Shown one piece after another: positions 1,047-6,081 of a stretch of 12,746 bases of DNA. The DNA comes from Cytophagales bacterium. GTDB taxonomy: Bacteria; Bacteroidota; Bacteroidia; Cytophagales; Microscillaceae. The stretch lies in assembly GCA_013297825.1 (NCBI GenBank), contig JAAFIN010000147.1, positions 1-12,746 on the forward strand, given 5' to 3'. Under the pieces are notes generated by a model. That model ran no database searches, had not been told where the DNA came from, and worked only from the letters and a program-made list of their open reading frames with translations. Position 1 is the stretch's first letter. Each line of letters starts with the position of its first letter. The translations under genes were made by a program, and so were the position numbers.

Positions 1047-1620
1047 TTAAAAATTCTCCCAATAAGATTTAAAATTAGGATAATATTTTTCTAATGCAGT
1101 TTTGATTTCTTTTTTTAAAGCAAAAAATTCATTTTTGAAATCTTTAAAATCAAAAGTAATTTTATTTTCAGAAATATTTTTATCTACTAAATATATTTTA
1201 TCATTTTCACACAAAAATTCTAAATTAAAATTTTGGTGCATACTTTTGATATTAAATACTTGTTTTTGTTGTTTTTCTAATTTTTCTAATAAAAATTCTA
1301 ATTGCACAACAAGATAAATATATTTTATCATTTTCACACAAAAATTCTAAATTAAAATTTTGGTGCATACTTTTGATATTAAATACTTGTTTTTGTTGTT
1401 TTTCTAATTTTTCTAATAAAAATTCTAATTGCACAACAAGATAAAAAACTTCTGCATTTTTGATTTCAATTTTTTTCTCTGGATTTTGAATTTCCTGAAT
1501 AATTAGATTGCTGTATGCTAATTCTGTGGAAAAGCTATCACTATCCAAATCATTTGGGTCTATGTCTTGGTTTTCATTAGCCCAAATTTCTGCATCAAAT
1601 TCAAAAGTAAATATTTTCAT
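1047..1620 (-). pseudogene. Hypothetical protein gene (ancestral product about 148 aa) split by a perfect 127-bp tandem duplication that introduces a +1 frameshift. The ORF-track entries 1252..1620 and 1047..1337 are its two halves.
   Basis: Both listed ORFs share the identical 44-aa block YLVVQLEFLLEKLEKQQKQVFNIKSMHQNFNLEFLCENDKIYL. The 5' ORF runs into garbage (SCCAIRIFIRK...) straight after the block, while the 3' ORF continues sensibly (VDKNISENKITFDFKDFKNEFFALKKEIKTALEKYYPNFKSYWENF). The two frames differ by 1 nt, and 127 mod 3 = 1. Removing one repeat copy restores a single 447-bp ORF. I recognise no known domain. Confidence 0.6.
1188..1441. repeat. Perfect direct tandem duplication, 2 x 127 bp (copy 1 about 1188-1314, copy 2 about 1315-1441; boundaries ambiguous by about 5 bp)
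   Basis: A direct read shows 1191-1313 and 1318-1440 are identical base for base (atatattttatcattttcacacaaaaattctaaattaaaattttggtgcatacttttgatattaaatacttgtttttgttgtttttctaatttttctaataaaaattctaattgcacaacaag). The offset is exactly 127 bp. Confidence 0.85.
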
Positions 1621-1625
1621 AAAAA

Positions 1626-1683
1626 GGTTTAAAGTTTAAGGTTCAAAGTTCAAGGTTTAAGGTTCAAAGTTTAAGGTTTAAAA
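1626..1683 (+). repeat. Array of about 8 tandem RGTTYAA heptamers (ggtttaa agtttaa ggttcaa agttcaa ggtttaa ggttcaa agtttaa ggtttaa). It forms the left arm of the composite repeat element.
   Basis: Read directly from the sequence. The array abuts the ATG (1620) of the minus-strand gene at 1252..1620. Confidence 0.8.
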
Positions 1684-1700
1684 TTTAGTATGAGAATTTT

Positions 1701-2054: not shown

Positions 2055-2100
2055 TTTAAACTTTGAACCTTAAACCTTAAACCTTGAACCTTAAACTTTC
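2051..2100 (-). repeat. Heptamer array in inverted orientation (TTRAACY x about 6). It forms the right arm of the composite repeat element and is an imperfect inverted repeat of 1626..1683.
   Basis: The reverse complement of 2051-2100 is gaa agtttaa ggttcaa ggtttaa ggtttaa ggttcaa agtttaa aactt. These are the same heptamer types as the left arm, in opposite orientation. The array abuts the stop codon (2100-2102) of lpxC/fabZ. Confidence 0.75.
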
Positions 2101-3491
2101 TAAGATTTCCTCACAATACTTGCAGAAAGCACCGCTTCACACACAAGTCCGCCACGCACATACGCCTCGCCTTTCATTTTGGCAATACCTCTGCGAATAG
2201 GATACAACAATTCACATTGAAAAGTAATAGTATCACCAGGTTGCACCATTTTTTTAAATCTACATTCATCAATAGAAAGCAAATATGCCCAATAATTTTC
2301 AGGGTCAGGCACCGTACTAAGCACCAAAATCCCCCCTGTTTGAGCCATTGCTTCTATTTGCAACACACCAGGCATTACAGGATTATTTGGGAAATGCCCC
2401 ATAAAAAAAGGCTCATTGATGGTTACATTTTTGATGCCTGCCACGCTTGTATCGTCCAAATGATAAATTCTATCCAACAATGCAAATGGGTATCTGTGTG
2501 GAAGAATATTAGCAATGTGCTTCACGTCCATCAAAATAGGCATATTTGGGTTATAATCAGGAATACGTTTTTTGCTTTCAAGAAGCATAGCTTGTCTGAT
2601 TTTTTTGGCAAGACCAACATTTGCAGCGTGTCCAGGACGAATTCCCATAATTTGGGCTTTTAGTGGTTTTCCTACAAGTGCAAGGTCGCCAATCACATCA
2701 AGGAGTTTGTGGCGAGCAGGTTCATTTTTAAATCTAAGCGTAATATTGCTTAAAGTACCTTCTTTGTCAATGGTAATTTTTGGTTTGCCCATTAGTTTAG
2801 CAAGTCGGTCAAGTTCTTCTTCTGGGAGGATTTTATCCACAATTACAATGGCATTATCCACATCACCACCTTTTATAAGATTAGCATTAAAAAGTGCTTC
2901 CAATTCGTGCAGAAACACAAAAGTACGACAATTCGCAATTTCATTTCTAAATTCTGAAATATGGCTAATGCTTGCGTGTTGGTTATTTACGATATTTGAA
3001 TTATAATCTACCATTACCACCACACGATAATCATTGAGAGGCATTGCTGAAATTTCTACGCCTCTTGCTTGGTCAGTAAATACAATATTTTCTTTTACTT
3101 CATAATAAATTCTTAAAGCATCTTGTTCTTGCAATCCTACACTTTCCAATGCTTCCACAAACATAATAGAACTTCCGTCCATAATAGGTGGTTCTGCTCC
3201 ATCAATTTGAATAAGCAAATTATCAATTCCCAATCCTACCAATGCAGCAAGCGTATGCTCTACAGTATGTACTCTTGCACCATTTTGTTCTATGGTCGTA
3301 CCACGTGAAGTATCCACTACATTGTCCGCAAGGGCATCAATAATGGGCTGATTAGGTAAATCCACCCTTTGAAACTTGTAACCGTGATTAGGAGGTGCAG
3401 GCACAAAAGTCATAGTAGTTAATGCCCCAGTATGAAGTCCTACACCTGCTACTTTTACGGATTGCTGAATGGTACATTGTTTGTGGCTCAT
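2100..3491 (-). CDS. lpxC/fabZ: Bifunctional UDP-3-O-acyl-N-acetylglucosamine deacetylase / 3-hydroxyacyl-ACP dehydratase (LpxC/FabZ fusion, as is typical of Bacteroidota)
   Basis: The ORF is 463 aa. The N-terminal about 300 aa are LpxC-like ([27 protein letters not shown]..., [10 protein letters not shown]..., zinc-deacetylase fold motifs). The C-terminal about 150 aa are FabZ, carrying the hallmark [13 protein letters not shown] and [23 protein letters not shown] motifs. Confidence 0.9.
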
Positions 3492-3594: not shown

Positions 3595-3696
3595 ATAACG
3601 CTGAAAATTATTATTTTTTTGTGCAAAATTCCATTTTTAAAACACAAAAAAAAACTTTTTTTAAAAAATTAGCAAAATTTTATGAAACTTTTAAAC

Positions 3697-3768
3697 TTTA
3701 AAACCTTGAACTTTTGAGCTTTTTGAACTTTTGAACCTTTGAGCTTTTTGAGCTTTTGAGCTTTTAAA
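3697..3768 (-). repeat. Degenerate array of CTTTTGAR / TTGAACY units. It belongs to the same heptamer family in inverted orientation and overlaps the stop codon of the OMP gene.
   Basis: aaccttgaa cttttgag ctttttgaa cttttgaac ctttgagc tttttgag cttttgag cttttaaaac. The reverse complement gives (C)TCAAAAG / GTTCAAG units, as in the arrays at 1626 and 11457. Confidence 0.5.
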
Positions 3769-4525
3769 ACCCATAAAACGCCCCTAATTGCAATCCAAGC
3801 ACAATCGCACCAGCTTTTTTGTCAGGTACCCAAATTGTGTGTGCTTTTAAACTTAAATCTGCTGAAAATCTTTTTGAAAATTGATATGCACAACCTGCGC
3901 CAGGTGCAGCACCATAATCCACAGAATTAGAATTAAGGCTCAATGTGCTTGTGGCTAATGCAGCTTGCAATGGTTGAACATTACCAGGAATTCCTGTTCC
4001 TTGTATTTCGTAGTATTTTGCAATCAATTTACCAATTTTTATATCAATATTATCACTTCTACGCACATACACACCAAAATCCCAAGAAACGTAAGGACGA
4101 ATTTTTTTATTTTTTAAGATACTAAATTCTACGCCCATATTGATAGGATAAAAATCTACATTTGGCACTTTTATTTGGTCACTTTCAGGTGATGCTGCAT
4201 TGTAAAGGTCTAAAATTACGATTGTACCTTCACTTATCCCCAACGTTTTAGCGTATTCACCCAAATTTTCGCCTGCTCTACCAAAAGCAAGATATTGCAA
4301 AGATGTAGTAATTGTCCAGCGTGATTGTTCGCTTGTATTTTCGTCTATTTTTTTAGGAATGGTATATTTGCTTGTAACACCAAAACCATAACCGTTTTTG
4401 TTGATAGTTCCAAAATCACCTGTTGGAATTGCATAAGAGGGCATCAATCCAATACGAAAGTTTTGGGCAAAAGTGAAATTAGGATTTAAAAAAAAAAATA
4501 AATTAAAACGTATATTTTGGGGCAT
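3764..4525 (-). CDS. Outer-membrane beta-barrel protein (OmpA/OmpW-like beta-barrel fold, function unknown)
   Basis: The ORF is 253 aa. It has a weak N-terminal signal (MPQNIRFNLFFFLNPNFTFA|Q), alternating hydrophobic beta-strand patterning throughout, and the C-terminal aromatic residue typical of OMP beta-barrels (…LQLGAFYGF). Confidence 0.5.
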   Translation of the reverse strand: MPQNIRFNLFFFLNPNFTFAQNFRIGLMPSYAIPTGDFGTINKNGYGFGVTSKYTIPKKIDENTSEQSRWTITTSLQYLAFGRAGENLGEYAKTLGISEGTIVILDLYNAASPESDQIKVPNVDFYPINMGVEFSILKNKKIRPYVSWDFGVYVRRSDNIDIKIGKLIAKYYEIQGTGIPGNVQPLQAALATSTLSLNSNSVDYGAAPGAGCAYQFSKRFSADLSLKAHTIWVPDKKAGAIVLGLQLGAFYGF

Positions 4526-5232: not shown

Positions 5233-5799
5233 TTATTGTTTCACAAATTTAAAAGATTCTTTTGTATTCATATTGTTACTTTTGCCTTTTGTATTTTTGG
5301 CAATCATAGCACGAAATTCTTTTTCAGTTTTAAATTCAGTAGCTTTGTCTTGTCCCATTTTAAAATCGTCTTTGTTTTTTGCTGCTTTTTCTTCAATGAG
5401 TGGCATAACTGAAAGATTTTTGCCTTCCACTTTGTATTTCAAATATGTATTTTTTCCTGGTTCTTTGTCATTGCTAAGTGTCATAAAATTCTCGCCATTC
5501 ACTTTGTGAATATTTACAACAATACCAGGACTTGGCTCACCTTGTGGATTTGGAGGAAGAATCATTTTGTAAGTTTTATCACCTGACGCAGTAAATTCAA
5601 TCGTTTCAATGGCTTGATTTAGTGGGTCGTCTTTTTTTGCAGTTTTTGGTGGTTGTAATTTCCATTTTCCTACAATAGATTTATCTTCTATTTGGTCTTT
5701 TGGTTCGCCTGCCATATATGCAGAACTGATACAAGATGTTGCACAGAAAGCAAGTGCAAGAATGATAAAATGAGTAACAAAATATGCGGTTTTTTTCAT
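5233..5799 (-). CDS. Lipoprotein, lipocalin-like domain
   Basis: The ORF is 188 aa. It has a signal peptide with a lipobox-like Cys (MKKTAYFVTHFIILALAFCATSC). The mature protein begins with a GKWKL motif (SIVGKWKLQ), typical of bacterial lipocalin-like lipoproteins. It is lysine-rich and hydrophilic. Confidence 0.6.
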   Translation of the reverse strand: MKKTAYFVTHFIILALAFCATSCISSAYMAGEPKDQIEDKSIVGKWKLQPPKTAKKDDPLNQAIETIEFTASGDKTYKMILPPNPQGEPSPGIVVNIHKVNGENFMTLSNDKEPGKNTYLKYKVEGKNLSVMPLIEEKAAKNKDDFKMGQDKATEFKTEKEFRAMIAKNTKGKSNNMNTKESFKFVKQ

Positions 5800-6036
5800 T
5801 TTTTTTTATAAAAAGTTGTATAAAATTTTTAGTGATTTAACATTGCAAACCTACATATTTATTTTTGATTATTTAAAAACTTTTTACCAAATGCCATTTT
5901 GAATTGATGAAATGTCATTTTTAATAAACAAAAGTGTTAAAATCATTTTTTTAAAAATTATTTTTTTATTAAAAAAAAAACCTGTATTTTTAGAAAGATT
6001 TTATAAATCAAAAGGTAATTAAATACCCTAATTTTT

Positions 6037-6078
6037 AATTTCTCATTCTTAATTCCTAATTCTTAATTCTTAATTATT
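6037..6078 (+). repeat. Six tandem AATTCYT heptamers ending 4 bp before the MVP start codon
   Basis: aatttct cattctt aattcct aattctt aattctt aattatt, then tact ATG. The period of exactly 7 was verified by the positions of 'aattc' at 6051, 6058 and 6065. Confidence 0.7.
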
Positions 6079-6081
6079 ACT

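Follow-up and report, generated by a model that had tools for sequence, protein, structure and literature searches.

Among the tandem repeats of seven nucleotides found in bacteria are the short tandemly repeated repetitive (STRR) sequences of cyanobacteria, reportedly described by Mazel in 1990. Heptanucleotide simple sequence repeats (SSRs) have been described as the most abundant class of long SSR in many genomes, and polymerase slippage is credited with producing them (Mrazek 2007, as cited in PMC4679880 and PMC4692102). For other heptamer arrays, an average distance of 28 nt from the upstream open reading frame (ORF) has been reported (Rehm 2015, PMC4692102). Heptamer repeats that abut a start codon take the place of the ribosome-binding site in Beggiatoaceae, cyanobacteria, and Bacteroidetes, including Flexibacter/Bernardetia litoralis (MacGregor 2015, PMC4679880). 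Here we analyze a heptamer array immediately upstream of a gene for a major vault protein (MVP) homolog in a Cytophagales bacterium; the window analyzed is the entire NCBI contig JAAFIN010000147.1 (12,746 bp). We conclude that this array is probably an ordinary repeat and not a special switch of the MVP gene.

The array is non-coding, lying between the ORF 5233..5799(-) and MVP in an upstream spacer with a GC content of 16%. The identity of the downstream gene, which an earlier annotation made from the sequence alone (the original prediction) had given as MVP, is confirmed by Pfam matches to MVP_shoulder (1.4e-31) and Vault_3 (1.6e-08), with a further match to Band_7. The ATG at 6082 is the MVP start, since orthologs share the N terminus MAEENRE. 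Direct reading of the spacer gives the units AATTTTT (beginning at 6030), AATTTCT (6037), CATTCTT (6044), AATTCCT (6051), AATTCTT (6058), AATTCTT (6065), and AATTATT (6072), which are followed by ACT (6079) and the ATG. The period is exactly 7 nt, with zero indels across the 7 units (49 nt in total), and Tandem Repeats Finder (TRF) reports 6029-6079 with period 7, 7.3 copies, 81% matches, and a score of 60. The original prediction had described a perfectly periodic tract of six AATTCYT units at 6037-6078, ending 4 bp before the ATG. The tract is real and its spacing is indeed free of indels. Its sequence is less regular than was claimed: only 3 of those six units match AATTCYT (6051, 6058, and 6065), the others carrying one mismatch each; the longest perfect period-7 run, as computed, is 19 nt (6057-6075, or 2.7 units); a seventh, degenerate unit (6030-6036) lies outside the range; and the gap to the start codon is 3 nt. 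This ACT spacer puts an A at -3, and the last array unit puts an A at -6 (Table 1).

The heptamer periodicity is above chance. Of 2000 dinucleotide-preserving shuffles of the 282-nt intergenic region, only 1 equaled its period-7 self-match score of 20, with any period from 4 to 15 counted; of 300 shuffles of the whole non-coding DNA of the window (29% of its length), none did.

Table 1. Features of the MVP upstream region and other heptamer arrays in the window
Feature	Position	Strand	Basis and remarks
TATTTTTG, exact -7 consensus match, alternative promoter candidate	5860..5867	+	motif scan; leader would be ~210 nt; not conserved in 85% relative
Block TATTTTTAGAAAGATTTT, conserved with 85% relative, putative MVP promoter	5985..6003	+	alignment, motif scan
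G-free run without ATG/GTG/TTG, 66 nt directly upstream of ATG	6016..6081	+	computed and direct reading
Block AATTAAATACCCT, left border of array	6017..6029	+	alignment; conserved in both close relatives, anchors orthologous alignment
Heptamer tandem array, 7 in-register units	6030..6078	+	direct reading, TRF, shuffle test
Array core, three units exactly AATTCYT	6051..6071	+	pattern search
Spacer ACT between array and start codon, 3 nt	6079..6081	+	direct reading
MVP homolog, 829 aa	6082..8571	+	ORF list, Pfam; array in its putative leader
(RAACYTT)n array	1624..1687 (TRF 1627-1687)	-	3-6 nt before ATG of ORF 1252..1620(-); array, TTT, ATG
(AAGGTTY)n array, complementary orientation	2056..2099 (TRF 2056-2096)	-	directly after lpxC-fabZ stop (2100..3491, minus)
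(RAACYTT)n array, ~8 units	11461..11521 (TRF 11482-11520)	-	2 nt (CC) before TTG of HAD hydrolase 10833..11456(-)

The original prediction had proposed that copy-number variation be looked for in reads or in related strains, and copy number does differ between related genomes. Only two closer relatives are on record, at 94% and 85% identity. The 94% relative, represented by two JGI metagenome contigs (L001 and L002), reads AATTAAATAGCCTG ATTTCCT AATTCTT AATTCCT AATTCTT AATTAAA TTT ATG, and when aligned with the window it differs by two indels of 7 nt and one of 1 nt, together with a few exchanges between C and T. The 85% relative (L003, GCA_031425615.1) reads CCCT AATTTCT AATATATT(CCCCCTTTGGGTTTAGGGGG)CTTTT AATTCCT AATTCCT CTT ATG, where the parentheses mark a GC hairpin inserted within the array that splits its units 1+2. 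The three leaders align through the conserved blocks TTTTAGAAAGATTTT and TAAAT-CCCT on the left and the ATG on the right, and the unit count is ~7 in the window, ~5 in the 94% relative, and 1+2 in the 85% relative. The array is absent before MVP in four relatives at ~66-72% identity (L123, L125, L128, and L130, the last being Bernardetia litoralis), in which the final ~30 nt upstream of the ATG are non-repetitive, A/C-rich, and G-poor; its absence at this distance indicates that the array is restricted to a narrow clade. Metagenome scans for more clade members gave 0 matches with the MVP 5' coding pattern and 0 matches with a pattern spanning the junction of array and MAEENR.

Based on these comparisons, the change in array length among orthologs is slippage-type turnover, and unit number is not conserved, drifting over evolutionary time. 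The 7-nt indels support the slipped-strand part of the original prediction, in that the tract looks like a product of slippage; the phase variation that it proposed is neither shown nor favored by a tract that is short and degenerate. The 94% relative is known from two independent assemblies, whose MVP tracts are identical, as are their heptamer arrays before the HAD hydrolase gene; this identity between two JGI metagenome samples argues, weakly, against hypervariability.

We asked where the array lies relative to the promoter. A sigma-70-type promoter scan is unsuited to Bacteroidota and was replaced by a scan for TAHHTTTG, which yields candidates only. This sequence is the -7 element of Flavobacterium johnsoniae and lies 4-5 nt from the transcription start site (TSS) in that organism, whose leaders have a mean length of 33 nt and exceed 10 nt in 87% of cases (PMC6847099). 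The sequence TATTTTTA at 5985-5992 is a one-mismatch match to this consensus, and the block that contains it is conserved in the 85% relative although the flanking genes differ. Judging from alignment and motif, 5985-5992 is the best candidate for the MVP promoter, and the corresponding leader would be ~85 nt long and include the whole array. Other one-mismatch matches occur at 5959-5966 and 6029-6036 (TAATTTTT), among others, and the TAHHTTTG scan found no -7-like motif between the array core and the ATG. Because all candidates lie upstream of the core, the array is probably part of the 5' leader, and its core most likely lies downstream of the TSS. Because there is no -7-like motif 3' of the core, a change in unit number would alter the length of the leader and not promoter spacing, which makes the spacing effect suggested in the original prediction unlikely. 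A leaderless mRNA with a -7 box in the last unit (TAATTATT) was also considered; this candidate was rejected since two of its positions, the invariant G among them, depart from the consensus and relatives do not share it.

In Bacteroidota, initiation depends on weakly structured leaders that have adenines upstream of the start and are depleted of AUG, and in F. johnsoniae it is promoted by A at -3 and -6 (PMC6847099). The original prediction had noted that Bacteroidota use an A/U-rich unstructured leader in place of a Shine-Dalgarno sequence, and the MVP leader fits this remark, with neither a G nor an ATG, GTG, or TTG in the 66 nt before the start codon. A TAA recurs every 7 nt, which places stops in all three frames and closes the sense frames. 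The predicted fold of 6000-6111 (leader plus the first 30 coding nt) has a free energy of -9.1 kcal/mol (z = +0.38 versus shuffles). RNA folding thus detected in the MVP leader no stability beyond that of shuffled sequences and no hairpin like those of the Haemophilus influenzae HMW loci, and Rfam gave no match at the gathering threshold anywhere in the window.

The original prediction considered the heptamer to be probably specific to this locus, a view that the recurrence of AATTCYT arrays does not support. The 85% relative has a second array, TTAATTCCT AATTCCT AATTCTC AATTCCT AATTAAA ATG, which leaves no gap to the start codon and precedes a glyoxalase/HPPD-like (dioxygenase-like) gene (L003 5221..6312(-)) unrelated to MVP. 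In the ~47 kb surveyed for the lineage (~35 kb of the window clade plus ~12 kb from a second contig of the relative), AATTCYT arrays precede MVP in three genomes and this one other gene in the 85% relative. When species-representative genomes were scanned with the pattern (AATTCYT)3AATT, (AATTCYT)n was found at at least 119 loci in many phyla. Host groups among the matches listed include cyanobacteria, many Bacteroidota, Verrucomicrobiota, Planctomycetota, Chloroflexota, Treponema, Clostridia, Patescibacteria, and others, and other heptamer arrays often flank the AATTCYT arrays in these matches.

The positions of 128 arrays among the matches listed were analyzed with mechanical ORF calls and a 30-nt limit to gene ends. 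A gene start lies downstream within this limit, with AATTCYT on the sense strand, for 23 of the 128 arrays, and in the opposite orientation for 17 (p = 0.43), so that the leader-sense strand bias of AATTCYT before starts is not significant. Arrays placed directly after a stop codon are more asymmetric: AGRAATT is on the sense strand in 47 of the 128, and the other orientation is found in 14 (p = 3e-5). The offset of the AGRAATT-sense arrays from the stop codon is often -6 to +10, and all are within 30 nt. Arrays also occur 0-13 nt before housekeeping genes, which encode ribulose-phosphate epimerase (Rpe), a class-III aminotransferase, an NAD-dependent sugar dehydratase, riboflavin kinase/FAD synthetase (RibF), riboflavin synthase, arginyl-tRNA synthetase (ArgS), and an amidase (GatA).

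A scan of viral contigs returned 84 loci for AATTCYT and 37, 39, and 49 loci for three composition-matched control heptamers. Because the controls are only ~2-fold rarer, the AATTCYT unit is generic, and its spread mirrors how common AT-rich heptamer repeats are in general. The possibility that AATTCYT is a special cosmopolitan element was rejected on the same counts. Heptamer arrays are also common in viral or virus-binned DNA: at least four separate (AATTCYT)n arrays are found on each of the viral contigs IMGVR_UViG_3300013383_000066 (L168, L181, and L197) and IMGVR_UViG_3300014204_000458 (L140 and L147), and many of the control-heptamer matches come from giant-virus metagenome-assembled genomes (MAGs). 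Inverted (AATTCTT)n pairs, ~20 nt apart, occur at least three times in 7 kb of the Chloroflexia MAG DASVQO010000194.1 (L034 3034-3116, 4793-4858, and 5617-5699) and would form long AT-rich intergenic hairpins; similar pairs are present in L007 and L092.

From these results, we consider it probable that the array is a slippage-made heptanucleotide SSR in the proximal MVP leader that is tolerated or mildly useful, drifts in unit number, does not act as a fast switch, and is not specific to MVP. Replication slippage just upstream of the MVP start codon would generate the array and would still change its length, the array being one of many in an intergenic-rich, AT-rich Cytophagales-like genome. 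The array would lie downstream of the TSS and make up the final ~50 nt of the 5' leader of MVP. This position would tolerate it, and it may be of slight use, since it suits what Shine-Dalgarno-independent initiation in Bacteroidota requires: without G it should form little structure, it offers no competing start codons, it has stops in all frames, and its junction with the gene places A at -3 and -6. Distant orthologs would satisfy the same compositional need through their non-repetitive A/C-rich leaders. The array is thus probably transcribed, and its effect on translation would range from neutral to mildly favorable. A required sequence-specific role is argued against by the unconserved unit number, by the absence of the array at ~70% identity, and by the unrelated nature of the downstream genes, and with so short and degenerate a tract, rapid phase variation is unlikely.

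Several observations weigh against this account. The best-conserved -7 candidate has an A where a G is nearly invariant, and the -7 consensus comes from Flavobacterium and not from the Cytophagales. In the window, T and C stand at -12 and -13, where A is favored, and neither close relative keeps the A at -3 and -6. Units of AATTCYT remain beside the ATG in 3/3 clade members despite rearranged flanks, and this retention could reflect selection on the sequence itself rather than tolerance. Finally, the lineage sample is small, consisting of the ~35 kb and ~12 kb described above.

Alternatively, the heptamers of the leader (or of single-stranded DNA) could serve as a binding platform, each unit being bound by a CsrA-like factor or by an OB-fold protein such as bS1 or one with a cold-shock domain, to give a post-transcriptional regulon of genes that carry arrays. 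The retention of units next to the ATG throughout the clade is consistent with this proposal, as are the forward pyrimidine-rich arrays that adjoin the start codons of several genes in the window and the relative. A similar proposal has been made for the start-proximal TAACTGA repeats (MacGregor 2015), and CspB binds one protein per heptamer with a preference for T/C-rich sequences such as TTCTTTT (PMC4679880). However, neither unit number nor unit sequence is conserved and the array is missing from the orthologs at ~70% identity, the leader-sense strand bias among the 128 arrays is not significant, the genes downstream of the arrays are functionally unrelated, and no candidate binding protein was identified. 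We therefore regard a binding platform as unlikely.

If the MVP locus were a contingency locus, slippage of the heptamers would act as a phase-variation or rheostat site that reversibly tunes MVP within a population. Heptamers are prone to slippage (PMC4679880), the unit number of related genomes differs in ~7-nt steps, and the position of the tract, with the likely promoter on one side and the start codon on the other, is that of the tracts in the HMW loci (PMC12721329). The tract differs from those loci in that its longest perfect run is 2.7 units at an 81% match, while HMW tracts have 11-63 conserved units, and in that the HMW-like hairpin was not found in the fold described above. In addition, the MVP and HAD arrays do not vary between the two assemblies of the 94% relative, AATTCYT arrays also precede housekeeping genes, the relatives are free-living Cytophagales, and MVP is not a known surface antigen. 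On balance, a contingency function is distinctly improbable for this array.

A further proposal joins the pyrimidine-rich arrays of this lineage (AAUUCYU and RAACYUU), set in register against start codons, into a genome-wide post-transcriptional code, read unit by unit by cold-shock proteins (Csp) or bS1, or through pairing with the purine-rich arrays that follow stop codons. Were this so, unit number would set the translation rate of the vault protein and of other genes, and slippage would be an evolvable translation dial that works without Shine-Dalgarno sequences. We hold this to be very doubtful.

We give even less credence to a role of the array as promoter or operator DNA, that is, as part of the core promoter or as a double-stranded array for transcription factor binding in which unit number sets the -33/-7 spacing or the occupancy of an operator. 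AT-rich direct repeats can bind regulators, and the first degenerate unit overlaps the one-mismatch -7-like sequence at 6029-6036. At 6036 this sequence lacks the G that hardly ever varies in the -7 element (PMC6847099), and with no -7-like motif 3' of the array core the spacing of promoter elements would be unaffected. The sigma-70-type scan gives nothing within the array, the 7-bp period would be out of phase with the DNA helix, and identical arrays follow stop codons and precede unrelated genes in many phyla. An assembly artifact or chance low-complexity sequence, which might be imagined for a short MAG contig of AT-rich DNA in which repeats can be misassembled, is highly unlikely because orthologous arrays are present in three further independent assemblies, the 49-nt tract fits well within a single read, and only one of the 2000 intergenic shuffles matched its score.

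Heptamer repeats are not confined to MVP within the window. Period 7 is prominent among periods 4-12 across it, further period-7 arrays are reported by TRF at 11575-11592 and 12389-12411, and a period-7 array is located at the start codon of 2 or 3 of the 10 genes; at other genes, arrays are found directly after the stop. The leader of the HAD hydrolase gene shows the same turnover as that of MVP, with ~8 units in the window (11461-11521(-)), ~3 in an 89% relative (L342/L343 1-75), and ~1 in a 79% relative (L340 1380-1460). In the 89% relative, the annotated TTG start of HAD falls inside the (RAACYTT)n array. Units of the RAACYTT family contain TTG and so are able to supply start codons.

The stretch at 3686-3765(-) is an (AAAAGYTC)n repeat with a period of 8-9 nt that starts right after the TAA stop of the gene 3764..4525(-). 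An AAGGTTY-related array (the complement of RAACYTT) directly follows the stop codons of both lpxC-fabZ and 3764..4525(-); together, 3686-3765 and 2056-2099 indicate that purine-rich-sense arrays directly after stop codons occur in this genome. On the minus strand, the order of elements at 1624-2099 is the lpxC-fabZ stop, (AAGGTTY)n, a minisatellite, (RAACYTT)n, and the ATG of the next ORF. The minisatellite (1696-2059) is a 42-bp AT-rich repeat with 8.7 copies and a 91% match, and it lies between inverted heptamer arrays whose arms (1631-1674 and 2056-2099) are 44 nt long and 95% complementary. The overlapping ORFs 1047..1337(-) and 1252..1620(-) contain a perfect tandem duplication of 127 bp (1188-1445, 2.0 copies, 100% identity), which may be either a recent event that disrupts a gene or an assembly artifact.

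Upstream of the HAD array on the minus strand are (AACAGGATT)n at 11523-11557 and (TGAATGN)n-type repeats at 11575-11639, and the 500-bp spacer at 11457-11954 is mostly made of various micro- and minisatellites. Near-identical GC hairpins are present in the genome of the 85% relative at positions where the window has heptamer units: CCCCCTTTGGGTTTAGGGGG in the MVP leader (L003 9959-9978) and CCCCCTTTGGGTTAGGGG upstream of the HAD gene (L340 ~1395-1415). This hairpin may be a small element, similar to a repetitive extragenic palindrome (REP), a miniature inverted-repeat transposable element (MITE), or a terminator, that inserts into or replaces arrays.

The window also encodes an LpxC-FabZ fusion, which is typical of Bacteroidota, and a Por_Secre_tail protein, in agreement with an origin in Bacteroidota. 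A database lookup for a protein identical to the MVP of the window returned no record. The homologs of this protein (n = 6928) are bacterial, the named ones being from Microscillaceae and Bernardetia, and MVP homologs of Cytophagales bacteria have already been described (bioRxiv 10.1101/872010).

Taken alone, the array is of little importance: the genome is rich in repeats, and this is one more heptanucleotide array among them. The series of orthologs with ~7, 5, 3, and 0 units is a clean example of an mRNA whose ribosome-landing region is occupied by a repeat, in a phylum without Shine-Dalgarno pairing, and the locus lends itself as a natural experiment on whether such repeats act as neutral filler or tune translation. 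It also cautions that a repeat upstream of a gene is not automatically a phase-variation switch. Because bacterial genes for vault proteins are still little understood, any handle on their expression would be useful, yet the analysis found no specific tie between the repeat and vault biology.

Compared with known systems, the MVP array most resembles the TAACTGA repeats (MacGregor 2015). Both consist of forward tandem 7-nt units placed a few nucleotides from the start in the position of a ribosome-binding site, the MVP array ending 3 nt before the ATG with no Shine-Dalgarno sequence in its 66-nt G-free run. Both are G-poor or G-free, precede unrelated genes, and differ by 7-nt indels between close strains. 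The host lineages overlap, since B. litoralis carries a TAACTGA-type array; we found ~4.9 units of it 4 nt before a queuosine-synthesis gene (CP003345.1, L130 7856-7889), which independently reproduces the MacGregor 2015 observation for this species. The unit in the window is AATTCYT and is degenerate, and at least two unit families (AATTCYT and RAACYTT) are present in the genome. Because its unit is AATTCYT and not TAACTGA, the MVP array is an analog of the TAACTGA family rather than a member of it.

The array also has the features of the long heptanucleotide SSRs (LSSRs), which include the cyanobacterial STRR and the GGGAATC/GGGGAYT repeats of Xanthomonas and Nostoc (Rehm 2015, PMC4692102): it is tandem above chance, non-coding, present several times per genome, and polymorphic in length by unit steps. 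Both types are intergenic with many arrays per genome, vary in length and sequence at conserved positions between close relatives, have a proposed origin in slippage, and hug gene ends, as in the 47 of 128 AATTCYT arrays (among the matches listed) that directly follow a stop. In contrast, the described repeats are G-rich and quadruplex-capable or specific to cyanobacteria, whereas the MVP array contains only A, T, and C and adjoins a start codon rather than a stop codon.

The resemblance to the (ATCTTTC)n tracts of H. influenzae HMW1/HMW2 (PMC12721329, PMC8262952), the one heptamer switch of a 5'-untranslated region that is well studied, is more limited. Both are pyrimidine-rich heptamers between promoter and start, transcribed in HMW and probably transcribed in the MVP leader. 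The HMW tracts have 11-63 near-identical units, form a long hairpin with a G-rich arm, are cleaved by RNase III, and precede a surface adhesin of a host-adapted pathogen, whereas the MVP array has 7 degenerate units, no hairpin, and no G-rich partner and precedes the gene of a cytoplasmic-type protein in an environmental bacterium. The array is not the long near-perfect tract of a contingency locus, does not lie between promoter elements or in a structured 5'-untranslated region, and does not precede a surface or host-interaction gene; with no Rfam family and an unremarkable fold score (z = +0.38), it does not resemble a structured RNA leader either. With the Shine-Dalgarno-independent initiation regions of Bacteroidota (Baez 2019, PMC6847099), it shares an unstructured G-poor leader, AUG depletion, and A at -3 and -6. 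The determinants described for those regions are positional adenines (-3, -6, -12, and -13) and not repeats; the window has T and C at -12 and -13, and the adenines at -3 and -6 are lost in close relatives. This kind of repeat is already known; the MVP array differs from its closest precedents in its unit, AATTCYT, and in being degenerate.

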